IMG/VR virus record: IMGVR_UViG_3300045988_161728
Reading direction: 5' to 3' (one strand)
DNA length: 64,000 nucleotides
From: a virus
Taxonomy: Duplodnaviria; Heunggongvirae; Uroviricota; Caudoviricetes
The position numbers were made by a program, and so were the translations under genes. Shown here piece after piece: positions 2,033-64,000 of this stretch (the stretch's first letter is position 1; every line of letters begins with the position of its first letter). The notes beneath the pieces are model-generated. The model searched no databases. It was given only the letters and a program-made list of their open reading frames with translations, and was not told the DNA's origin.

Positions 2033-3855
2033 GCCCTTACGATGTAATTAAATGCGATATTTCGTGGACGGGTTTCACTCCCGCCAGTATTACCAATACT
2101 CCCTCGAGAATGAAGTGTCGGTGATGGAATCAAATTCCCTCCTGTATTTGAGGCATCAAGCCCCCGTCCTTGTGTGTATGTTTTTTTGAAAATTGTCGCC
2201 AGCTCCCATTCATCTTTTGTGTCGTAACCATCATTGGCTACAACAATATGTCGGTGCTTTTCCAGCATTCCTGTCTGAATGCTCAATAAAGCACGTCCCG
2301 CATCCACCCCGCGCCCATCATCCCAGCCGCGAATAAATTCTCCCCGTAAATCCGGTAATTTATTGGTGGGATAAGCCTTTGCCAGATTTGGGTACTTTTC
2401 AGAAGAAAATGCTGCACCATTGCATTTCAGCCACCCCGTTGGAGGTGTGGCTGAGGGCCATGGAACAGGTACACCAACGGGCAGCGCCGAGCCTTCTCCT
2501 AAACCAAGGTAATCAAGAACGCTCTGAATACTGGTCTTACCAAGAATGGCGCGTCCAACACTTGTCAATGCAGTTAACGCGGCACGATCAACACCTGTGA
2601 AATAAGGGAGTTTATCTGCTGCTGTAGCTAGTGCCGCTAGAGCAGTGAGCGTAGCGTCTGCCGCTTGCTTTCCATTAGCCAAATCATATGCAGCCTTGAC
2701 AGCTTTCGGTGTGGCGGCCAGCACTTCGGACGTGCTATTGGTAGCACTGCTGAGTTGGACTATCCCTTTTTGAGCCGTGGTTGCATCCTGGGCTGTATAC
2801 TTCCCGTTAGCCAGGTCATATGCAGCCTTGACAGCTTTCGGTGTGGCGGCCAGCACTTCGGACGTGCTGTTAGTGGCACTACTGAGCTGAGTGATGCCTT
2901 TCGCTGTCAATGAAGCTGTTGGCACACCAGTGATCTGATTCCAGGGATGTGTATGACTGGATGGTGCCTTTCCGGCTGCTAGATCGTATGCAGCTTTAAC
3001 CGCTTTTGGAGTTGCAGCTAATGTTTCAGAAGTGCTGTTAGTGTCGCTACTGAGCTGAACTATCCCTTTTTGTGTCGTGGTTGCATCCTGGGCTGTATAC
3101 TTCCCGTTAGCCAGGTCATATGCAGCCTTGACAGCTTTCGGTGTGGCGGCCAGCACTTCAGACGTGCTGTTAGTAGCACTGCTGAGCTGAACTAATCCCT
3201 TTTGCGTTGTGCTTGCATCCTGCGCCGTATACTTGCTTTTCGCCAGATCGTAGGCTTTTTTAACTGCCAGCGAACTTGCAGCGACATCACTTCTGGTACT
3301 GGTTACAGAGTCGGAAATTTCAATGCCTATCGTGAGATCGATGCGGTCGGATACATCTATCATTTCCTGAGTAATAGCAGATACGCCAGCAGGGATATTC
3401 ACCGTACAAACAAGCAGTTCCCCATCTCCTAACTGATATGAATCGGTATAGGTTCTGGCAACAAATTCAGCCGCATGAATATGTGACGCGGTATTAACCT
3501 GATAAGAATCTTCTCCAAGGAGGTATCTTCCCTTCAGCACAATTGCATATTTCTTACCTGCGCTAAGTGCAAGAGAAATATCCTTACGCTGCTGAATAGT
3601 TACCTGGTAGAATTCACCAATATTCACTGACGCCGCGCCAGCGGTTTTATCACCATCCACTGAGGTGATTAACAGGTTCATTCCACCGCCAGGCTTAGGC
3701 AAGAAACCAGCATAAAATCCCGGGTCAACAATTCCCCTGAATTTTCGGTTTAGAGCGGCTGACAGATATGGTTCGTGGTATTGCACATCAGCCACCAGAG
3801 CCAACGACTCGGGTGATGGGTAAGTAACCGATGTAACAACTGTAACGTCATTCAT
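2026..3855 (-). CDS. S: Tail fibre protein S (constant part fused to Sv cassette A)
   Basis: Probable start ATG at 3855 (MNDVTVV..., AAGGAT RBS) rather than the ORF-track start at 3942; internal fibre repeats (AATPKAVKAAYDLA..TAQDATTTQKGIVQLSS) recur 4-5 times; C-terminal 170 aa match the other Sv cassettes. Confidence 0.8.
   Translation of the reverse strand: MNDVTVVTSVTYPSPESLALVADVQYHEPYLSAALNRKFRGIVDPGFYAGFLPKPGGGMNLLITSVDGDKTAGAASVNIGEFYQVTIQQRKDISLALSAGKKYAIVLKGRYLLGEDSYQVNTASHIHAAEFVARTYTDSYQLGDGELLVCTVNIPAGVSAITQEMIDVSDRIDLTIGIEISDSVTSTRSDVAASSLAVKKAYDLAKSKYTAQDASTTQKGLVQLSSATNSTSEVLAATPKAVKAAYDLANGKYTAQDATTTQKGIVQLSSDTNSTSETLAATPKAVKAAYDLAAGKAPSSHTHPWNQITGVPTASLTAKGITQLSSATNSTSEVLAATPKAVKAAYDLANGKYTAQDATTAQKGIVQLSSATNSTSEVLAATPKAVKAAYDLANGKQAADATLTALAALATAADKLPYFTGVDRAALTALTSVGRAILGKTSIQSVLDYLGLGEGSALPVGVPVPWPSATPPTGWLKCNGAAFSSEKYPNLAKAYPTNKLPDLRGEFIRGWDDGRGVDAGRALLSIQTGMLEKHRHIVVANDGYDTKDEWELATIFKKTYTQGRGLDASNTGGNLIPSPTLHSRGSIGNTGGSETRPRNIAFNYIVRAA
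2494..2519 (-). other. Candidate 26-bp Cin/Min-type crossover site at the Sc/Sv junction
   Basis: TTCTCCTAAACC-AA-GGTAATCAAGAA, an imperfect dyad with a 2-bp core, placed exactly where the constant sequence (..SVLDYLG) meets the conserved cassette head (LGEGS..); resembles the gix/hix/cix family as remembered. Confidence 0.45.
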
Positions 3856-3866
3856 CAAGCATATCC

Positions 3867-4301
3867 TTATGCTGTAGTCGAGTTTATGGCCATAACTGCG
3901 GTATATGTTTTGCCCACATACAGCGAGTCTTCTTGGACACAAATAATGGCGATTGGCTTATTCTCGTTATCCAGAACAACCAGAGTGTTGAATGGGTAGT
4001 TTTTCCCTTCCTGCAACTGACTTTGATCAAGGTCCATTCGGACAGTAATTATCCCGCCTGAGTAGGTTGGGACGAGGTTGATGGTGCAAAATTGACTGGT
4101 CAGTTCTGCCAGATCGAAAGCCTTTGGCAGTTCTCCAATCTCATAAGTGCCATCTCCTTTCTTAGTAACCAGTGAACTGGTACCGAAAACGGCCTTGCTG
4201 ATTAAAAATCGAGAGCCTTTGTTAATGGACGATTCAGCGCGCCGCTGATAGTAATAGTCCAACAACTGACTCTTATAGAGGTTTGTTGAGACGTCAGACA
4301 T
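3867..4301 (-). CDS. R: Tail-fibre associated structural protein (P1 R position)
   Basis: 144 aa ORF immediately upstream of S in the same operon; assignment is positional. Confidence 0.45.
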   Translation of the reverse strand: MSDVSTNLYKSQLLDYYYQRRAESSINKGSRFLISKAVFGTSSLVTKKGDGTYEIGELPKAFDLAELTSQFCTINLVPTYSGGIITVRMDLDQSQLQEGKNYPFNTLVVLDNENKPIAIICVQEDSLYVGKTYTAVMAINSTTA

Positions 4302-4379
4302 GATTTTCCCTAATCAATGTTGTGAAGCCTCATTGTAAGATAAGTAACTTGTCACCCCGCCCTGCGGACGGGGTGATTG

Positions 4380-5219
4380 TCACGCATCGCTATCCAACAG
4401 CAAATCATCTGCGCGGGTGCGATCAAACGTAGGCGTTGCTTTCACAATAGTGCCGCCCGGCGTTGCAGTGATCGGGGCGTTAATCGACGTAACTTCAGTA
4501 AGCGAAGTTGTATCCGAAGTTTCAAACCAGCAGAATGCTTTTTCGGTATCAGAAATCTCATTCAAAGTGATCATGTCGGCCTGTTCATTTACAACAACCG
4601 ACAAATAGAGCGTAAGCCCATCAAACACTATATGCAGTGGCAGTAGAGGCTTTACGAACTGATTAAACTTTCTGAGAATTTCTTCTGTAATTGCGGACTG
4701 ATCTATCGTTCCAGTAATACCCATTGTCCGGGCCAAGTCGTTTATGGGAATACTGATCATTCCTCTGGAAGTCAGAAACATCTCGCCGAATGTGCCGCCG
4801 GTGGTTTCCAGTGTGCTTTCTGGAATCAGGACCGTGCCATAGGGATGACGTTCAAAGTCCACCGGAGCATATATGGGATCCCATAAAACCGATATACCGT
4901 TAAATTCGCGATAAATTGTCTGGTTTATAGGGCGTTCAGTACCCTTAAAATGGATCTCATCAAACCGCTGTTGTAACAACATCGGAACGGAAGATGAATT
5001 CGACGTTCTGATAGTAAAAAACTGGCCAAGTTCATTTGTCCTAGTCTCCAGATCCTCCTTGCTCATGGAGAAAATAGACTTCCGGTTGGTAATTCGCTCC
5101 AACCATGGGTCAACAAAGGTGTCCATCATTGACTGAACCAAATCAGCCAATGATTTATAAAGTAATGACTTTTGCTTAGCTGATGTAAGCCGGTTATTAA
5201 ACCAGGAACGCTGCATCAC
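4380..5219 (-). CDS. Baseplate protein (gpI-like; P1 gene 16 position)
   Basis: 279 aa; follows a W-like/J-like pair in P2-type order W-J-I-H(fibre); positional inference. Confidence 0.4.
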   Translation of the reverse strand: MMQRSWFNNRLTSAKQKSLLYKSLADLVQSMMDTFVDPWLERITNRKSIFSMSKEDLETRTNELGQFFTIRTSNSSSVPMLLQQRFDEIHFKGTERPINQTIYREFNGISVLWDPIYAPVDFERHPYGTVLIPESTLETTGGTFGEMFLTSRGMISIPINDLARTMGITGTIDQSAITEEILRKFNQFVKPLLPLHIVFDGLTLYLSVVVNEQADMITLNEISDTEKAFCWFETSDTTSLTEVTSINAPITATPGGTIVKATPTFDRTRADDLLLDSDA

Positions 5220-12751: not shown

Positions 12752-13564
12752 CTATTTTAATTCTATGTAGTTTTTAAATTCTCCCTCATATTTATACATG
12801 ATGCTATCAAATCCTTCCATTACATCAACGAATTGTTGTGAACATTCCGGCTTCCAAGGCGTACACTTACGAACCATATCCATTTTATTCTTATCCTTCG
12901 TTGTATCGACTAAGGATAGGTACCCTATAAAATTCATCATCTGAACAGGATCTTGATTTGTGAATATATATTTGACGTTTTGCTTAGTAGGTGAAAAAGA
13001 ATCAAAAGCAGGGAACATATATTCACCAGAAAAAGAGAGTGCAGCATCAATGACGTCTGTTGCTGGAGTGCAGTTGCTCAGAATTGGCACTAAGCTAAAA
13101 TTAGCACCGGAGCACACTGCATATATATCATCCCCTTTTTTTAGTTTTAACAGAGAGTCTTGCTTTGAATCCAATATTTTCAATTTGATATAATTTAGTG
13201 GCGTTGCATTTTCCCCTGGAGTAAATAATTCTACAATTGGTTTATTATTCACCATTCTTATGGATTTTATTTCACCATACACAATTGGAATTGTGTTCCA
13301 TTTTTCCTGAGCAGCAAATTCATTATCTTTAAAATCATTAACCAACTCAGATGGCAAATGATAACCAAATTGATTGTTCATTGCTTTCGAAGCAAATCCA
13401 GACAAATAGAATGCCCTTACTAAATCATAATCTTTCTTTGAGGTAGAAAGCCAATCTGGCAATTTATTATCAGCTATCGCGCTTCCAGCAAAAATAGCAC
13501 AACAAAATGTTATTACATTAAATAATTTCATTTTCCATTCACTCATTAATCGGTTTAAACTCAC
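12752..13564 (-). CDS. Exported protein with N-terminal signal peptide (possible Sim-like exclusion protein)
   Basis: ORF maximum 270 aa; likely start at the third Met (near 13531) giving MKLFNVITFCCAIFAGSAIA signal peptide; AT-rich codon usage unlike neighbours. Confidence 0.5.
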   Translation of the reverse strand: MSLNRLMSEWKMKLFNVITFCCAIFAGSAIADNKLPDWLSTSKKDYDLVRAFYLSGFASKAMNNQFGYHLPSELVNDFKDNEFAAQEKWNTIPIVYGEIKSIRMVNNKPIVELFTPGENATPLNYIKLKILDSKQDSLLKLKKGDDIYAVCSGANFSLVPILSNCTPATDVIDAALSFSGEYMFPAFDSFSPTKQNVKYIFTNQDPVQMMNFIGYLSLVDTTKDKNKMDMVRKCTPWKPECSQQFVDVMEGFDSIMYKYEGEFKNYIELK

Positions 13565-13856
13565 TAATTAATTCACCAAGACTATTTGGGTATGCTTTAT
13601 AAATAACATACTCCGAAGAGCCATCTGAATATTGGTAAACCCCATAACAGACCAGTTTATTTATTCCTTTCTGAATAGTTTTTTGATTATAAGAATCAAC
13701 CACTGTTATTCCATATGACGATAATATTTCGTTATATTCTTCAATAAGAGCTTTTCTTGTTTCCACTGAATTGCAATCTACCTTCGAAAAGTCAACTTCA
13801 TCAGCAAAAACATTAAATGTTAAAAAGGAAAGCACTAAAAACAAACGAATCAGCAT
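13539..13856 (-). CDS. Small exported protein (signal peptide MLIRLFLVLSFLTFNVFA)
   Basis: ORF track gives 13539..13874; start at 13856 is preferred because it has an AGGAG RBS. Confidence 0.45.
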   Translation of the reverse strand: MLIRLFLVLSFLTFNVFADEVDFSKVDCNSVETRKALIEEYNEILSSYGITVVDSYNQKTIQKGINKLVCYGVYQYSDGSSEYVIYKAYPNSLGELISEFKPINE

Positions 13857-13877
13857 AAATCCACTCCTACGCATGGA

Positions 13878-13999
13878 TTAATAGTCATTGATCGCAAAGG
13901 CGTAAACGTGCCCAAGGTATTTCGTATAATCGGTACAAATCTCCTTTACGCTTGATGCTGCATTAACAGTCCCAGCCATAAATAATAACGGTAGTAATA
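13878..13999 (-). CDS. Small exported peptide (40 aa, MRKLLLPLLFMAGTVNA signal peptide)
   Basis: Not in the ORF track (too short); GAGG RBS 7 nt upstream; third co-oriented secreted product in the island. Confidence 0.3.
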
Positions 14000-14105
14000 G
14001 TTTTCTCATTATAACCTCACCTGCCTTATAACTCATTTAGGGTACATATTTTCGCCTTTAAAAAAAAGAGGTTATTAGATCCAACTGTGTATTTATTAAA
14101 CAAAT

Positions 14106-14122
14106 AATGCTCTAATAAATTT
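14106..14122 (+). promoter_or_regulatory. C1-operator-like site upstream of the ImmI promoter
   Basis: AATGCTCTAATAAATTT, one mismatch to the P1 operator consensus ATTGCTCTAATAAATTT (from memory). Confidence 0.55.
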
Positions 14123-14308
14123 GTATTTTTAAGTCGCGAATGCTATCTTTTCGCATCATATTGACCTTTTAATCGTTCAGGCTTATAGTTCCACCGTCTT
14201 AGCAAATTCTGCGACCGGGTTTGACAGCCTGAATGTTAGTGCGGACAACCGCAGATTTCCGATATTGCGGTATTTTTGTGTCCGTAAACCGCGTTACGCC
14301 CGAATTAT

Positions 14309-14385
14309 GGTGGGGCGTGATGGGGAGGCTTCGGCCTGCTGGTTTCACTAACGCCAGTCTGTCAACCCTGTCACGTCCTGCCACC
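14309..14385 (+). ncRNA. c4: C4-type antisense repressor RNA of ImmI
   Basis: 77-nt segment with paired ends (GGTGGGG...CCACC); internal TCACTAAC and CTGTCAA are complementary to GTTAGTGA (14418..14425, covering the icd RBS) and TTGACAG (14389..14395) just downstream. Confidence 0.5.
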
Positions 14386-14435
14386 TGTTTGACAGCGGGT
14401 AGCAGGTTGTTAAACCTGTTAGTGAGGCCGTAACT

Positions 14436-14657
14436 ATGGTTAATGCCAATCCTTGCACACGCCCAGAATTCATCTGGCGTTTCTATTCCTGTAAAAAACA
14501 CCACTATCACTTCGTTATCGCAGCAACTGAAGACGAAGCACGCTCTCAATTGCCTGATGGCCCCTGCATTTTTACTGCCCGTTTTTCTACTAACTCGCGC
14601 AATTCACTTAGTTACTGGAACCTCCCCTTCTCTGCCGACGTTCAGGGGGGTTTATGA
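14436..14657 (+). CDS. icd: Icd-like small protein translationally coupled to ant
   Basis: 73 aa ORF with GAGG RBS inside the c4 target; stop overlaps the ant start (ATGA). Confidence 0.45.
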   Translation: MVNANPCTRPEFIWRFYSCKKHHYHFVIAATEDEARSQLPDGPCIFTARFSTNSRNSLSYWNLPFSADVQGGL

Positions 14658-15697
14658 AAAAACCTCTCGTCACCCGTAATGAAATAGCCGAAGCGATCGC
14701 TTTGCATACTGCCTGTATGCCGACACGGGAGATCCCCGGCGCAATTGCTAACTATTTCATGATAACCAGGCGTTTTTATACCCGAACAGATAAGGCTGTG
14801 ATCAACAGGCTACTGATAGCCGAGATCAGGGATTATTTGATTGAACAAGGACGTCTACGTTACGCAACAGTGGCAGCAGAAATAAGAAAGGAGGCACATA
14901 GAATGACCGGTAATAATTTGAATGTTGAAAAAACAGCACCTGTTACGTCAGCTACGCCAGCACCAGCCGTGAATATCATCCCCAACACCGGAGACACAAT
15001 CGACAGCCAAACATTGTTGAAGATGGTCAATGAGGCACGCAAGTTATGTGGAGAACCAGAGGTTAGAAACAATAAATTCATCGAAAAAATACTCGATGAA
15101 CTTGAAGGTGAATTTTACACAAAAAGTGCAAAATCCCATGGCACAAGGGCTGGGCGCTCTTTTGAGGTCATCACCATGACCTACAAACAAGCCCTGCGAG
15201 TCGCCGCGCGCGAGTCAAAAGCGGTCCGCCGTTCGCTGATCGACAAACTGGAAGAATTGCAGCAGGCAAACTCCCCTGCCCCATCGATCCCCCAAACATT
15301 ACCAGAAGCTCTACGCCTGGCTGCCGAGTTGGCAGAACAGAAAATGCAGCTGGAACAACAGCTGGTGGCCGCAGCCCCTAAAGTAGATTTTGCCGACCGG
15401 GTATCAGTGGCTAATGGAATCCTGATCGGGAACTTTGCAAAGGTCGTTGGACTTAAGCAAAACGCCCTTTTCTCATGGTTGCGCCAGAACGGCATTCTCA
15501 TGGCTTTTGGTGCGCGCAAAAACGTACCGCGCCAACAGTACATCAACGCCGGATATTTCACGGTGAAAGAAGTGGTGCTGGATGATGAAAATGGCTACCA
15601 GATACGGCTGACGCCCCAATTAACGGGTAAAGGCCAGCAGTGGTTAACTCGCAAGCTACTTGATGCTGGTTTGTTAAAACCAGTAGCAATAGGTTAA
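14654..15697 (+). CDS. ant1: Antirepressor Ant1 (KilAC-type C-terminal domain)
   Basis: 347 aa; C-terminal 130 aa (PQTLPEALRLAAELAEQK...TGKGQQWLTRKLLDAGLL) is paralogous to the C-terminus of the next gene; sits downstream of c4/icd. Confidence 0.7.
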   Translation: MKKPLVTRNEIAEAIALHTACMPTREIPGAIANYFMITRRFYTRTDKAVINRLLIAEIRDYLIEQGRLRYATVAAEIRKEAHRMTGNNLNVEKTAPVTSATPAPAVNIIPNTGDTIDSQTLLKMVNEARKLCGEPEVRNNKFIEKILDELEGEFYTKSAKSHGTRAGRSFEVITMTYKQALRVAARESKAVRRSLIDKLEELQQANSPAPSIPQTLPEALRLAAELAEQKMQLEQQLVAAAPKVDFADRVSVANGILIGNFAKVVGLKQNALFSWLRQNGILMAFGARKNVPRQQYINAGYFTVKEVVLDDENGYQIRLTPQLTGKGQQWLTRKLLDAGLLKPVAIG

Positions 15698-15774
15698 CAA
15701 AAGAAAAAACCTGCCAGCAAACTGGCAGGTTTCTGAGCAGATCGACCAACCCGATCTGGATCGAGTCAGAAAAA

Positions 15775-15791
15775 TTTGCTCTAATAAATTT
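15775..15791 (+). promoter_or_regulatory. C1-operator-like site upstream of kilA
   Basis: TTTGCTCTAATAAATTT. Confidence 0.55.
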
Positions 15792-15860
15792 CGTTTTCTA
15801 AGTGCAAAGAATCACCATTTCGAGCTGGTGATTGAAGGTTGATGCAAATTTGGAGAAAAA

Positions 15861-16661
15861 ATGCAACAAACATTCAATGCGGATATGAATATATCAAACC
15901 TTCATCAAAATGTCGATCCTTCAACCACTCTGCCTGTTATTTGTGGTGTTGAAATTACGACCGACCGCGCTGGCCGTTACAACCTTAATGCTCTACACAG
16001 AGCGAGCGGACTCGGTGCCCATAAAGCGCCAGCTCAATGGCTAAGAACGCTGTCAGCCAAACAGCTCATCGAAGAGCTTGAAAAAGAAACTATGCAGAAT
16101 TGCATAGTTTCGTTCGAAGGCCGTGGCGGCGGCACTTTTGCCCATGAATTGCTCGCAGTGGAGTACGCAGGCTGGATTTCTCCCGCGTTTCGGCTGAAGG
16201 TAAACCAGACATTTATCGACTATCGAGCCGGAAGATTACAACCTGCTATTCCGCAGAGTCTCCCTGAAGCTCTCCGTTTGGCTGCCGACCTGGCAGAGCA
16301 AAAGCAACGGCTGGAGCAAAAAATGCTTATGGATGCACCTAAAGTCGAATTCGCCGAACGCGTTGCTACCGCCAGCGGGGTTCTAATCGGCAACTATGCC
16401 AAAGTGCTCGGCCTGGGCCAAAACTATCTCTTCACCTGGTTGCGTGATAACGGAATTCTGATCGCAACCGGTGAACGCAGGAACGTCCCCAAACAAGAAT
16501 ACATATCCCGTGGGTATTTCACCCTTAAAGAAACCGTGATCGATACAAGCAATGGAAGCAGGATTTCTTTCACGACTCGTATAACCGGCAAAGGTCAGCA
16601 GTGGCTGATGAAGCGATTGCTTGATGCTGGTGTGCTGGTACCTGTCGCGGCAACGCGCTAA
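15861..16661 (+). CDS. kilA: KilA (KilA-N plus KilAC antirepressor-type domains)
   Basis: 266 aa; directly upstream of repL as in P1 kilA-repL. Confidence 0.65.
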   Translation: MQQTFNADMNISNLHQNVDPSTTLPVICGVEITTDRAGRYNLNALHRASGLGAHKAPAQWLRTLSAKQLIEELEKETMQNCIVSFEGRGGGTFAHELLAVEYAGWISPAFRLKVNQTFIDYRAGRLQPAIPQSLPEALRLAADLAEQKQRLEQKMLMDAPKVEFAERVATASGVLIGNYAKVLGLGQNYLFTWLRDNGILIATGERRNVPKQEYISRGYFTLKETVIDTSNGSRISFTTRITGKGQQWLMKRLLDAGVLVPVAATR

Positions 16662-16690
16662 CAGACGTAGTAAGAACCACCAGCATTGTA

Positions 16691-17536
16691 ATGCTGGCTA
16701 AAGTCACTTTCCTGAGCTGTATAACGATGAGCGATTTTACTTTTTCTGGCTATGAATTGGCCTGCTTTGTAACACACTCCGGTCTATCCCGTAGCACCGG
16801 GCATATCCTGTCGCAATGTGCAAATCTCGCGGCAACAACCAGTGAATACTTCATTCACAAGCCTCACCGCCTGATCGCGGCAGAAACTGGTTATAGCCAA
16901 TCAACCGTCGTTCGTGCATTCCGTGAAGCTGTAAACAAAGGAATTCTGTCTGTAGAGATTGTTATCGGCGATCACCGTGAACGTCGCGCTAACCTGTACC
17001 GGTTTACGCCATCCTTTTTGGCCTTCGCACAACAAGCCAAAAATGCGCTGATTGAAAGCAAATTAAAGATCTCTTCAGCGGCAACCAAGGTTAAAGCTGT
17101 TCTCGCTAAGACATTGGCTTTATTTAATTTTTTATCCACACCCCCATGTCAAAATGATACCCCCTCCCCCTGTCAGGATGACGTGGCAATAAAGAATAAG
17201 AAGTCACAAGTTAAAAAAACAAAAAGATCAGTTTCCGGCGGTGCCGGAACGAGCAGACTCAAAAAATTGACTTCATGGATCGCTGAGGCAAAAGCAAAGG
17301 CTGACAATCTGCGGTTATCCAAAAAGCGCGCTCAAAAACATGAGTTCAAGCAGAAAGTAGAGGCGGCAGCGCGGAAATATGCTTACCTGAAGAACAAGCG
17401 TTCTCCTGATATTGGCGGGGTATCAAACTTCGATAATTTGCCGCATTGCATGACGGTAAACGAAGCTCTTAATGCGGTTTTAGCCAAAAATAAAGATAAC
17501 GAACAATGGGGTATACCGGCAGGATTCAGAGGGTGA
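16691..17536 (+). CDS. repL: Lytic replication initiator RepL
   Basis: 281 aa; basic Lys-rich C-terminal half; follows kilA; P1 oriL lies inside repL (from memory). Confidence 0.75.
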   Translation: MLAKVTFLSCITMSDFTFSGYELACFVTHSGLSRSTGHILSQCANLAATTSEYFIHKPHRLIAAETGYSQSTVVRAFREAVNKGILSVEIVIGDHRERRANLYRFTPSFLAFAQQAKNALIESKLKISSAATKVKAVLAKTLALFNFLSTPPCQNDTPSPCQDDVAIKNKKSQVKKTKRSVSGGAGTSRLKKLTSWIAEAKAKADNLRLSKKRAQKHEFKQKVEAAARKYAYLKNKRSPDIGGVSNFDNLPHCMTVNEALNAVLAKNKDNEQWGIPAGFRG

Positions 17537-17832
17537 TAGATTGCTCTAATCTGGAGTCACCTGGCGTTTTCAGTTTGAGGTCGGAGATGCAATCTGATTT
17601 TTTACAGTTAGCGATCGCTTTTGCAGGATATGTTTGTATTGGCTTCTGTGTATACATGATCAGCCGAAAAATGCTTGTCGATATCGACCGCAAAGAACAA
17701 GCAGAGGAGATCTTAGAATGGATTTTCTTTGGCGCGGTCTGGCCATTAGGGATCATGTTTGCTGCAACATTTCTTCTGATGTGGATATTCACCCTTCCAG
17801 GTGATTTCTATAGAAAAAAAGCCAGACATTGA
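17506..17832 (+). CDS. Small membrane protein (P1 RlfA position)
   Basis: 108 aa maximum; two hydrophobic helices; start uncertain. Confidence 0.35.
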   Translation: MGYTGRIQRVIDCSNLESPGVFSLRSEMQSDFLQLAIAFAGYVCIGFCVYMISRKMLVDIDRKEQAEEILEWIFFGAVWPLGIMFAATFLLMWIFTLPGDFYRKKARH

Positions 17833-18014: not shown

Positions 18015-18647
18015 CTATGCCGCCTTTCCAATTATGGATTCAGCGACCAGAACAACCCCATGCTTACTTCGATCTGGGTGTTCACTCCATATCTCGGATT
18101 CAGGAATACTTACCCCGTCATAGCAAACACGTTCGCCGTCAAACGGGTAATACTGAGCGGCATCGGTGTCGAGGATAAACACTTTTAGCTCGGAAGAGCG
18201 ACGGGCGATGTGTTGCCAAAGAGCTTTTCCACCTTCGTATTGCTCATTATCACTGAGCAAAACAACACCAGCTTTTGAGGCTACGGTTTCGTAAACAAAA
18301 GTAGCTAAACCGACATCCCGGACGGTTCCATCAACCACGATACCTTCAATCTGGGCAACATCGCTATCCTCCCAGAACTTCCTTACCAGTACGCCTTCAA
18401 GCTGCGGGCGACGTTGAAGTTCAAGAGTAGCGACAACCTTATGGCGCATATCACCATCGATAACAGAAGGCGCAGCCTCTATTACAGCTGCAAATGGGGT
18501 TTTGGAATCCCATATAACCTGGTAAAGCACACCCTGGATGGTAACTCCGTCCAGGATCGAAAATCGACGAGCGACAGTACCCGGGGAGTACGACATTGGA
18601 ATCACAGCCATTTTAGAGTCCCCCTTTAACAGTACAGGCACAAACAT
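18015..18647 (-). CDS. Hypothetical protein
   Basis: 210 aa ORF; likely start at internal Met (MAVIPMS...). Confidence 0.4.
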   Translation of the reverse strand: MFVPVLLKGDSKMAVIPMSYSPGTVARRFSILDGVTIQGVLYQVIWDSKTPFAAVIEAAPSVIDGDMRHKVVATLELQRRPQLEGVLVRKFWEDSDVAQIEGIVVDGTVRDVGLATFVYETVASKAGVVLLSDNEQYEGGKALWQHIARRSSELKVFILDTDAAQYYPFDGERVCYDGVSIPESEIWSEHPDRSKHGVVLVAESIIGKAA

Positions 18648-30920: not shown

Positions 30921-30937
30921 ATTGCTCTAATAAATAT
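30921..30937 (+). promoter_or_regulatory. C1-operator-like site
   Basis: ATTGCTCTAATAAATAT upstream of the uhr/hrdC-like genes. Confidence 0.55.
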
Positions 30938-32191: not shown

Positions 32192-34206
32192 AAGAGCTGT
32201 GCTATGGATCTGTTTGCAGTGGAATTGAAGCCGCGAGTATTGCCTGGGAACCGTTGGGTATGCGTCCGGCGTGGTTTGCTGAAATCGAGCCTTTTCCATC
32301 TGCCGTTCTTGCGCACCGCTGGCCCCATGTCGCCAACCTTGGCGACATGACAAAACTTGCCAAAAAAGTCCTGGCTGGGGAAATCGAATCCCCTGATGTG
32401 CTCGTCGGGGGTACGCCTTGTCAGGCATTCAGTATCGCGGGCTTACGTGGTGGGCTTGATGATGAACGCGGCGCGCTAACTTTGAAGTATGTGGAGCTTG
32501 CAAATGCAATTGACGACAAACGGTCTGAGTCCTTCCTCAAACCGACAGTTATCGTCTGGGAAAATGTCCCAGGAGTCCTGTCATCGGCAGATAACGCCTT
32601 CGGATGTTTCCTTGCCGGATTGGCTGGAGAAGATGCGCCATTTGAACCAGGTGATCGACCTGAATCAGGAAAAAGTAACGCGTTCTGGCGGTGGGATGGC
32701 AAAACCGGTTGCCATGCTCCAAAGTGGCCGCAGTGTGGTTGTATTTATGGACCGCAGCGAAAGGTGGCCTGGAGAATCCTTGATGCCCAATACTTCGGAG
32801 TGGCACAACGACGCCGACGCGTGTTTGTTGTCGCAAGTGCTCGAACAGACCTCGATCCCGCAACGGTACTTTTTGAGTTCGAAGGCGTGCGCCGGAATAT
32901 TGCGCCGAGCAGAGGCGAGGGGAAGGAAACTACCAGATATACTTCAAACATCGCTATCAGATCTTGCGATGATACAAACATAGTTGCCATGGCACATGGG
33001 CAAGGAGGGGCTGAGATAAAAACCGATAATTCGGCACCAACTTTGACATGTAACCATGAAGCACCAATTGTATTGCTCGTCGACGGTAGAATGCGCCGTC
33101 TTATCCCTGTCGAATGTGAAAGGCTGCAAGGTTTTCCTGATGGACATACATTGATCCCTACGGAAAAGCGTAAAAAAGTTTCTTCAGATGAACTGGCATA
33201 CCTTCGCAAAAACTATCCTGATTTGAGCGAAGAAGAGGCCGCGATGCTTGCAGCTGACGGACCGCGTTACAAAGCGATCGGCAATAGTATGGCGATACCA
33301 GTAATGCGCTGGATTGGCGATCGGATTGCCAAGGCTGCATGTCGGCAGAAGGAAGGGAGTGAAACAAAAGAGCGAAAAGTTAAACCAGCGGCAGAATTCG
33401 AACGGTCCATATTCAAATGGGCTGGTGGAAAATTTGGTGTTCTGGAACAAATCTTTCGCTATTTGCCAGAAGGGAAGCGCCTGATTGAGCCTTTCGTTGG
33501 TGGCGGAGCTGTCTTCATGAATGCCGGATACCAGGAAAATCTGCTAAATGATGTGAATGCTGACCTGATTAACTTTTACAAGACTCTGCAACGCGAGGCG
33601 CATTCACTTATCACTCTGGCACATCGTTTCTTCCAGGACTACAACACGCAGGAAGGATACCTGGCAGTACGGAATGCGTTTAACAAACAAGTCTATGATG
33701 ATTTACATCGCGCAGCGGCGTTTTTGTTCCTGAACCGACATTGTTTTAACGGATTGACGCGTTACAACCAAGCCGGTGAGTTCAATGTCGGTTATGGGAA
33801 GTATAAAACTCCGTATTTCCCATTGCAGGAGATGGAAGCCTTCCTTGGTGCGGAAGGGCGTTCTGAGTTTGTATGTGGTGATTTTGCTGCGGTGATTGAA
33901 GCTGCCGGAGAAGGAGATGTCATCTTTTGCGATCCGCCGTATGAACCGCTCCCAAATACAGAGGGATTCACGAACTATTCCGGTCATGACTTTAAGTTTG
34001 AAGAGCAAAAACGCCTGGCGTCTCTGTTGACGGATGCTCATCGCCGAGGTGCAAAGGTTCTCATTACTAACAGTGGCGCGCCAAACATCAGAGAACTTTA
34101 TCAGGACAGTGGCTTCAGAGTGGAACCTCTTTTTGCCAGACGTTCTGTGTCTTGTAAGGGGGACACTCGAGGTGTTGCTCATGACGTTATAGCAATATTG
34201 CTCTAA
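32188..34206 (+). CDS. dmt: Bifunctional DNA methyltransferase (N-terminal C5-cytosine, C-terminal Dam-like N6-adenine)
   Basis: C5-MTase motifs [11 protein letters not shown] and ENVPG in the first half; Dam-type FKWAGGK and DPPY in the second half; GTG start with GGAGAGG RBS. Confidence 0.85.
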
Positions 34207-34213
34207 TAAATTT
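34197..34213 (+). promoter_or_regulatory. C1-operator-like site overlapping the dmt stop
   Basis: ATTGCTCTAATAAATTT, perfect match to the remembered consensus. Confidence 0.6.
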
Positions 34214-34390
34214 ATTAGTGTAATATCGCCTCAATGAATCGTGATTTATAGAGCGATTTAGCTGTTAGCCGCGACAGGCGCGGCGGCAAGTATGGCGGGG
34301 TAGTGACTCCTTCCCCCTCATGACGCCGAGTTGCCAGGTTGACCATACGCCTAAGTGGCAACACCGAAGTGCGTTACGAGCTTCCAGTTT

Positions 34391-63705: not shown

Positions 63706-64000
63706 CTATTGCGCGCTTTCGGGGTTGCTGTTTACTGGCTGCCCCTTCTTAGTTTTACGGCTGCGCGTAACTGATGCGGCTGATTTGACCTTTTTCTCTT
63801 CGCGAGTGATGGCAATTTGTTTTTTTACATTTTCAATATCTGCCAGGCGATATATTTTTGCCTGCGGCCAGCGGTCGCAGATGATCGGTTCTATAGAGTC
63901 ATAAAGGCTAAATTTTGCTTTCTCGAATTCACCGTTGATGATGATTCCATCACGGAGAGTTTCATCGCAGATAAACACACCACACAGCGGCACATGGTAA
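63706..64000 (-). CDS. c1: 3' portion of a repressor-like gene (c1 position), 5' end beyond window
   Basis: Open frame runs to the window edge, convergent with pacB; identity is positional only. Confidence 0.4.
   Translation of the reverse strand, partial: YHVPLCGVFICDETLRDGIIINGEFEKAKFSLYDSIEPIICDRWPQAKIYRLADIENVKKQIAITREEKKVKSAASVTRSRKTKKGQPVNSNPESAQ

Follow-up and report, generated by a model that had tools for sequence, protein, structure and literature searches.

A bacteriophage P1-type ant and kilA locus with a shared KilAC domain and different N-terminal domains in a 64-kb viral sequence

The ant and kilA genes of bacteriophage P1 are textbook genes that were sequenced around 1989–1990. 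Synthesis of Ant is repressed by the c4 RNA, and the Ant1/Ant2 heterodimer is the antirepressor of C1 (PMC8546580); expression of ant depends on icd (P1 record note; PMC8201110). The kilA gene belongs to the same operon as repL and encodes a product that kills the host or inhibits its division (PMC8201110). This product is described as host-lethal and dispensable for replication (X15639 record, PMC8201110, and PMC10695390), and ant1, ant2, and kilA were non-essential in a CRISPR interference (CRISPRi) screen and dispensable for plaque formation (PMC10695390). The KilA-C domain was originally described at the C-terminus of P1 KilA (PMC5944126, citing Iyer, Koonin and Aravind 2002). We analysed a locus of this type in a 64,000-nucleotide stretch of DNA from a virus of the Caudoviricetes (IMG/VR record IMGVR_UViG_3300045988_161728; the whole stretch is hereafter called the window), in which a sequence-only reading had described two tandem antirepressor-type genes at positions 14654–16661 that share a KilAC C-terminal domain but have unrelated N-termini.

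Identity and control of the locus

We compared positions 14300–17600 of the window with a phage collection using megablast. Bacteriophage P1 matched at 99.1% DNA identity over 3251 bp (NC_005856, AF234172/3, X15639, X17512, and X15638), and approximately 20 P1/P7-like phages matched at 96–98%. Icd was 100% identical to P1 Icd, and Ant1 was identical to P1 Ant1 at 347 of 347 amino acids (aa), with one silent nucleotide change in the gene. KilA was identical to P1 KilA at 265 of 266 aa, position 123 being T in P1 and A here, and RepL differed from P1 RepL at 6 aa (275/281 identical). The gene order was the same as in the immI and kilA-repL regions of P1 (NC_005856 48140–51571; X15639, X17512, and X15638), and every regulatory element annotated in P1 was found at the corresponding place in the window, and this agreement extends to Op51 and Op53, the promoters, the C4 RNA with its target sites, the overlap of icd with ant1, and the ant2 gene nested within ant1. 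These results indicate with very high confidence that the interval belongs to a P1-type plasmid prophage and comprises ant1/ant2, from the immI operon, and, downstream of them, kilA, from the kilA-repL operon of the lytic replicon. The two open reading frames (ORFs) of the sequence-only reading, at 14654–15697 (347 aa) and 15861–16661 (266 aa), agreed exactly with the ORF listing in coordinates and length, and its antirepressor-type genes with KilAC are the P1 antirepressor gene ant1 and kilA.

One finding weighs against a full identification with P1: the window is not P1 itself and departs from it right after repL. The identity with P1 ends at approximately 17550, just past repL, and the onward sequence is as in phage vB_EcoM-673R5 at 99.7%. 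Past repL, P1 has the Op55 operator and rlfA/rlfB, whereas the window has two unannotated ORFs, as does vB_EcoM-673R5; because these P1 elements are replaced, the host element is a P1-like plasmid prophage and not P1. This analysis demonstrates what the locus is and which sequence features it has, and it turned up nothing that contradicts the identification as the P1 immI and kilA-repL region.

The control region of the immI operon begins with the C1 operator Op51 (Oc4), which controls the immI promoters. Its sequence, AATGCTCTAATAAATTT at 14106–14122 on the plus strand, has one mismatch to the C1 operator consensus and is found at the P1-annotated position, where the label in P1 NC_005856 is “monovalent C1-controlled operator Oc4; former Op51” (offset 12799). 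The promoters of the c4-icd-ant operon (14121–14189, plus strand), P51a (14121–14149) and P51b (14161–14189), were transferred from the P1 annotation, and P51b was independently recovered by a consensus scan as TTGACC-17-TATAGT. The a1/b1 target sites of the C4 RNA at 14183–14235 (plus strand) matched Rfam RF03163 with 47.5 bits (gathering score, 46.7). The gene for the c4 antisense RNA, the immI repressor, at 14303–14388 (plus strand) matched RF01695 with 68.8 bits (gathering score, 45; E = 1.8e-12), and the P1 annotation puts c4 at 14309–14385. The C4 target sites a2 (14389–14395) and b2 (14418–14425), also on the plus strand (14389–14425), were transferred from the P1 annotation, and the b2 sequence gttagtga overlaps GTGAGG, the icd ribosome-binding site, 8 nucleotides (nt) before the icd ATG. 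The icd gene at 14436–14657 (plus strand), an ORF that matched NCBIfam NF033153 with 52.6 bits (cut-off, 25), encodes a cell-division inhibitor, and its translation is needed for ant expression. The ATG of ant1 overlaps the stop codon of icd in the sequence ATGA at 14654–14657. A G+C-rich hairpin with a 13-bp stem was found by a terminator scan at 15705–15734, downstream of the ant stop codon and ahead of the promoter of kilA. The scan called it on the minus strand, and on the plus strand the stem is followed by TTTCT; this hairpin probably terminates the immI transcript.

The kilA gene at 15861–16661 (plus strand; ORF of 266 aa) is preceded by its own promoter, P53 (PkilA), of the kilA-repL operon, at 15757–15785 on the plus strand (P1 annotation transferred, offset 12798). 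The C1 operator Op53 (OrepL) at 15775–15791 (plus strand; one mismatch to the consensus; P1 annotation) overlaps the –10 element of P53, and is thus located within kilA's own promoter, 70 nt before the kilA ATG. The regulatory region of kilA contains three Dam (GATC) sites (15740–15762, plus strand; GATC at 15740, 15753, and 15759), which are annotated in P1. Inside the 5′ end of kilA, the consensus scan detected the antisense promoter P53as (PaskilA) on the minus strand at 15888–15916 (TCGACA-17-TATATT, extended by TG), and the P1 annotation gives the same position. The kilA gene is directly upstream of repL, as in the P1 lytic replicon. The repL gene at 16691–17536 (plus strand; ORF of 281 aa) encodes the lytic replication initiator, contains oriL, and is co-transcribed with kilA according to the P1 annotation.

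The sequence-only reading had placed each of the two genes behind its own C1-operator-like site. This description fits kilA, with Op53 in its promoter, and does not fit ant, whose operator Op51 precedes c4 and icd and is separated from the ant1 ATG by 532 nt. The two promoters, the C4 RNA gene, and icd all lie between Op51 and ant1. Rather than C1, it is the C4 antisense RNA, together with the expected translational coupling to icd, that acts directly on ant.

We scanned the window with the C1 operator consensus ATTGCTCTAATAAATTT and obtained 11 matches, including Op51 and Op53, against 0.25 expected by chance. This count fits the dispersed nature of the C1 regulon in P1. The nine further matches are located at 30921, 34197–34224, 44631, 48255–48320, 50396, 60377, and 62892, and those at 34197–34213 (plus strand) and 34208–34224 (minus strand) form an overlapping inverted pair.

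Several neighbouring genes were also observed. Upstream of immI, on the opposite strand, three ORFs of 270, 111, and 52 aa at 12752–14036 (minus strand) match the P1 superimmunity genes simC, simB, and simA in position and size. The two ORFs past repL are found at 17506–17832 (plus strand; 108 aa, hydrophobic, overlapping the repL end) and 18015–18647 (minus strand; 210 aa). Neither had a match in Pfam or PADLOC, and the segment 17506–18647 looks like a variable cargo slot of P1-like elements. The window ends within the c1 repressor gene, of which it contains the 3′ portion at 63709–63999 (minus strand; aa 187–283). This fragment shares 99% identity with C1 from P1-like plasmids, and no additional ant gene was found beside it.

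The KilAC domain and the N-terminal modules

BLASTP of the whole Ant1 and KilA proteins gave E = 2e-68 with 51% identity over 204 aligned positions, and the C-terminal 136 residues of the two proteins formed an ungapped alignment with 65.4% identity. Both proteins matched PF03374 (ANT, “Phage antirepressor protein KilAC domain”; cut-off, 25.3 bits), Ant1 with 106.5 bits (E = 1.2e-30; aa 234–336) and KilA with 112.2 bits (aa 152–254). The KilAC intervals are 15275–15688 (plus strand) for Ant1/Ant2, corresponding to aa ~208–345 of Ant1, and 16239–16658 for KilA. Tblastn of the C-terminal domain of KilA against the window gave E = 1e-61 at 15281–15688, and a third copy of KilAC was absent from the 64-kb window. 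The motifs PQ(T/S)LPEALRLAA(E/D)LAEQK, TGKGQQWL, and LLDAG are present in both translations, as had been read from the sequence. The pairwise alignment thus gave a similarity far beyond chance and not below significance. An origin of the similarity by chance or composition is excluded: it was refuted by the BLASTP E value and the PF03374 scores, which are approximately 4 times the Pfam cut-off for both proteins, and the domain is kept in 1287 phage records.

These records were obtained by tblastn with the KilAC of KilA, and 223 of them matched at 60–80% identity. Among the matches listed, Roi (HK97, HK022, HK620, and Stx phages) and a gene of Edwardsiella phage Edno5 were 65–68% identical to the query. 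We considered whether the two domains arose by recent duplication or gene conversion inside the P1 genome, since the two genes are adjacent and their KilAC domains are 64–65% identical, versus 20–48% identity to either for most KilAC domains found on homologues of the Ant middle domain (described below). However, that sample was picked by N-domain similarity. The listed KilAC domains from outside P1 are as close to that of KilA as the KilAC of P1 Ant, or closer, and the two P1 copies lack a long stretch of identical DNA. A recent intragenomic duplication is very unlikely, and it was dropped on the tblastn result. As the Roi and Edno5 domains are as close as that of P1 Ant and no long identical DNA was found, the two P1 copies are not each other's closest relatives. 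Judged by sequence identity, they are no closer to each other than to lambdoid Roi (~67%), and KilAC appears as a module that circulates among enterobacterial temperate phages and not as a duplication private to P1. Temperate phages join this module to interchangeable N-terminal domains of DNA-binding type, such as KilA-N in KilA and the Rha-like domain with an N-extension in Ant1.

In KilA, the N-terminal domain is KilA-N (PF04383, 75.4 bits; cut-off, 23.8; aa 27–123). KilA residues 63–118, within KilA-N (window 15861–16250), also matched the PADLOC model PDC-S22, a candidate defence system, with E = 7e-10; this match probably reflects the common KilA-N domain and not a defence role, and the PADLOC scan gave nothing beyond it. 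Ant1, KilA, and RepL had no match in NCBIfam. Residues 1–214 of Ant1 matched no Pfam family even at E ≤ 10, including KilA-N PF04383. An earlier homologue search with these residues gave 120 clusters that were all at least 88% identical and of no use for a profile. We then searched 1.8 billion representatives at 50% identity with Ant1 residues 1–214, and this search separated two modules. The N-extension behaves as a separate homology module, with matches that span only query residues 1–93/98, and the middle domain is found at the very N-terminus of approximately 100 representatives of 220–260 aa, which is the architecture of Ant2.

These results indicate that Ant1 (14654–15697, plus strand; ORF of 347 aa) consists of three modules, namely an N-extension, a probable Rha-like winged-helix domain, and KilAC. 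The N-extension (aa 1 to ~95; 14654–14938, plus strand) is predicted to be four-helical and is not part of Ant2. The middle domain (aa ~108–213; 14975–15292, plus strand) is common to Ant1 and Ant2. According to the P1 annotation, ant2 (14903–15697, plus strand; 264 aa) starts in frame at Met84, 249 nt after ant1, and this start has the Shine-Dalgarno sequence AGGAGG ahead of it at 14889–14894. The sequence-only reading had treated Ant1 as one N-terminal domain joined to KilAC; the KilAC part of this description stands, and the N-terminal part is really two modules with the nested Ant2 starting from M84.

The middle domain was compared with Phage_pRha (PF09669) using 98 proteins, namely Ant1 and 97 homologues, 33 of which carry KilAC. 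PF09669 matched 9 of the 98 proteins at E ≤ 0.01 (best, 34.3 bits), some of these matches being in a separate N-terminal Rha domain, and it did not match Ant1 itself. The middle-domain consensus of the 98 homologues aligned collinearly with PF09669 (E = 0.0016) at 19.4 bits, which is below the Pfam cut-off of 29.9 bits and counts against the Rha-like assignment. An AlphaFold model of Ant1 was built on a 104-sequence alignment and had a mean predicted local distance difference test (pLDDT) score of 83.5; the single-sequence model had a mean pLDDT of 39 and was unusable. In the alignment-based model (AF2), the pLDDT was ~97 for the middle domain, which has the order strand-helix-helix-hairpin-helix-helix (b-a-a-b-b-a-a), and ~95 for KilAC, which consists of a long helix, a helix-turn-helix, two short strands, and two beta-hairpins. 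The helices of the N-extension (8–20, 24–41, 44–64, and 70–86) had a pLDDT of 63–76. Foldseek of this model against the PDB gave no match at E ≤ 0.001 and only weak winged-helix regulators with a probability of 0.5–0.6; weak matches to winged-helix proteins of MerR/RacA type were also noted. A fold search in BFVD gave KilAC antirepressors and a “Rha family” regulator at E = 2e-4. The fold searches did not report aligned ranges, and the matches could therefore not be assigned to domains. Because the Phage_pRha match is sub-threshold, the PDB fold search was null, and BFVD gave a Rha match, we describe the Ant middle domain as probably a divergent Rha-type winged helix, which is not proven.

We investigated whether the two N-domains are related using an alignment of 15 KilA-N sequences from phage genomes and the 98-sequence middle-domain profile. 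Hhalign gave a probability of 1.2% between the two, and the middle-domain hidden Markov model (HMM) scored –0.2 bits on KilA. A very distant homology, in which the Ant middle domain and KilA-N would have the same ancestral DNA-binding fold collinear with KilAC, has some points in its favour. The BLASTP alignment reaches upstream of KilAC (Ant1 144–201 versus KilA 67–120), and the N-terminal parts alone gave E = 0.003 over 73 aa, although the latter signal takes in the common linker before KilAC. A forced global profile alignment was collinear and paired an acidic helix (DELEGE versus EELEKE), a beta-hairpin, and the helix VAMRESKAVRR with YAMWISPSFHLKV, but this alignment has no statistical support and the hhalign probability is that given above. 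We therefore consider such a homology quite unlikely. Hhalign against single-sequence templates (KilA-N, the Roi N-domain, and the Edno5 N-domain) gave probabilities below 5% in all cases, and since the expected positive control, the middle domain against Roi, was also below 5%, hhalign has low power with such templates. “Unrelated”, the term of the sequence-only reading, is the right working description of the two N-domains, on a test of limited power: KilA has KilA-N, and Ant1 1–214 has no Pfam family.

The observation of two genes with a shared C-terminal domain is correct and already known. The region is 99.1% identical to P1 and Ant1 is identical, so the domain pair was already known; the KilAC Pfam family was named after these proteins, and the observation is therefore not new. 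The domain was defined from them (PMC5944126, citing Iyer 2002), and the RefSeq P1 record labels ant1, ant2, and kilA “anti-repressor”. As a discovery the pair matters little, and its residual value is practical. PDB searches by sequence gave no match for Ant1 or KilA and hence none for KilAC, and this lack of a sequence-matched solved structure is part of that value.

Regulatory cascade and the role of KilA

The following account of the mechanism is drawn from the P1 literature and the P1 record, and its sequence features were verified in the window. In a lysogen, the C1 repressor would be bound to Op51 and Op53. The residual immI transcript would give the 77-nt C4 antisense RNA, which would pair with a2/b2 and so cover the ribosome-binding site of icd. 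Since the ATGA overlap would couple translation of ant1 to that of icd, this pairing would block both Icd and Ant, and no Ant would be made under C4 control. Loss of this control, for example through heteroimmune superinfection or vir mutations, would allow synthesis of Icd, Ant1, and the Ant2 nested in it, and the Ant1/Ant2 complex would bind and inactivate C1. This activity of the Ant of the window is taken from the literature and the P1 record note, and the 100% identity of Ant1 supports it. With C1 inactivated, all C1 operators including Op53 would be open, kilA and repL would be expressed, and lytic replication would proceed at oriL. KilA would kill the host when expressed while being dispensable for replication and plaque formation; the host killing is likewise taken from the literature. 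Under this account, ant and kilA form a cascade and are not parallel equals, with Ant acting upstream to inactivate C1 and kilA lying downstream under C1 repression. The separate immunity control proposed by the sequence-only reading holds insofar as there are two operons, each with a C1 operator, and the idea of a parallel pair gives way to the cascade.

An alternative role for KilA would be that of a second C1 antirepressor acting through the KilAC domain that it shares with Ant. If this were true, the Ant-C1-KilA cascade would form a closed loop of positive feedback, a latch that would render derepression irreversible, and the exchangeable N-domains (Rha-like, ORF6N, and KilA-N) would only localise or time the protein. 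The 65% identity of the two KilAC domains and the RefSeq name “anti-repressor” for KilA favour this role, which has been voiced only as a personal communication (Lobocka in PMC8201110); we found no experimental evidence for it in the literature. The KilAC of Roi is equally similar (67%) in phages without a C1-type repressor, so KilAC similarity at that level does not imply C1 binding. In Staphylococcus phage phi11 Gp07, the KilA-C domain is sufficient to cause filamentation, an effect indicative of a host target (PMC5944126).

Natural alleles of Ant1 bear on the same question. In those located beside a 99%-identical c1, the N-extension and KilAC (91%) are retained, and ORF6N replaces the middle domain. 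Because the middle domain is swapped beside a nearly constant c1, this arrangement suggests that the constant parts of Ant, the N-extension and/or KilAC, carry the C1 specificity. An involvement of KilAC would agree with an antirepressor role for KilA, but the N-extension is found only in Ant1 and is absent from KilA, and it could be the C1-binding part. Taken together, we regard an antirepressor role of KilA as unlikely, and the cascade, with KilA downstream of Ant and C1, remains the preferred account.

Comparison with known systems

Roi of the lambdoid phages HK022, HK97, HK620, and Stx phages shares the architecture of Ant2, with a Rha-type domain at the N-terminus and KilAC after it. HK97 Roi matched PF09669 over the full profile with E = 2.7e-5 and PF03374 with E = 2.2e-32. 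The KilAC of Roi is ~67% identical to that of KilA, and Roi is 59% identical to Ant1 over 165 aa including the linker. In contrast to Ant, Roi lacks the Ant1 N-extension, the nested second product, and the C4/icd control, and it is found in the nin region, the phages that carry it having lambda-type repressors. Roi has been described as a DNA-binding protein needed for growth on hosts deficient in integration host factor (IHF), and not as a C1 antirepressor.

Gp07 of Staphylococcus phage phi11 resembles KilA and Ant in combining an exchangeable N-domain with a C-terminal KilAC, and it is host-toxic on over-expression (PMC5944126), as reported for P1 KilA (PMC8201110). It differs in that its N-domain is Bro-N and not KilA-N or Rha-like, and in that its phage is a Gram-positive siphovirus. 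The toxicity of Gp07 was mapped to KilA-C, whereas we found no such mapping for P1 KilA in the literature.

A further comparison is with a second icd-ant cassette of P1-like plasmids (e.g. RCS47; L018–L020), which occupies another genomic position, between pacB and c1, is absent from the window, and has been noted before (PMC6906374). In the loci L018–L020, from P1-like plasmids of 90–96 kb, the cassette is found at 3645–5113. It consists of a gene for a 73-aa Icd-like protein (80% identical to Icd) with a 4-nt overlap to the gene for a 370-aa Ant1 allele (P0133), and the c1 beside it is 99% identical to the c1 fragment of the window. In P0133, ORF6N (PF10543) replaces the Rha-like middle domain, and the N-extension (43% identical over matched stretches) and KilAC (91% identical) are kept. 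In another relative of Ant1, P0121, ORF6N is added to the middle domain and does not replace it; the KilAC domains of these two relatives with ORF6N are 91–96% identical to that of Ant1, and both keep the N-extension. These natural P1-like alleles, which carry the Rha-like domain, ORF6N, or both, are ready domain swaps for mapping the part of Ant that contacts C1.

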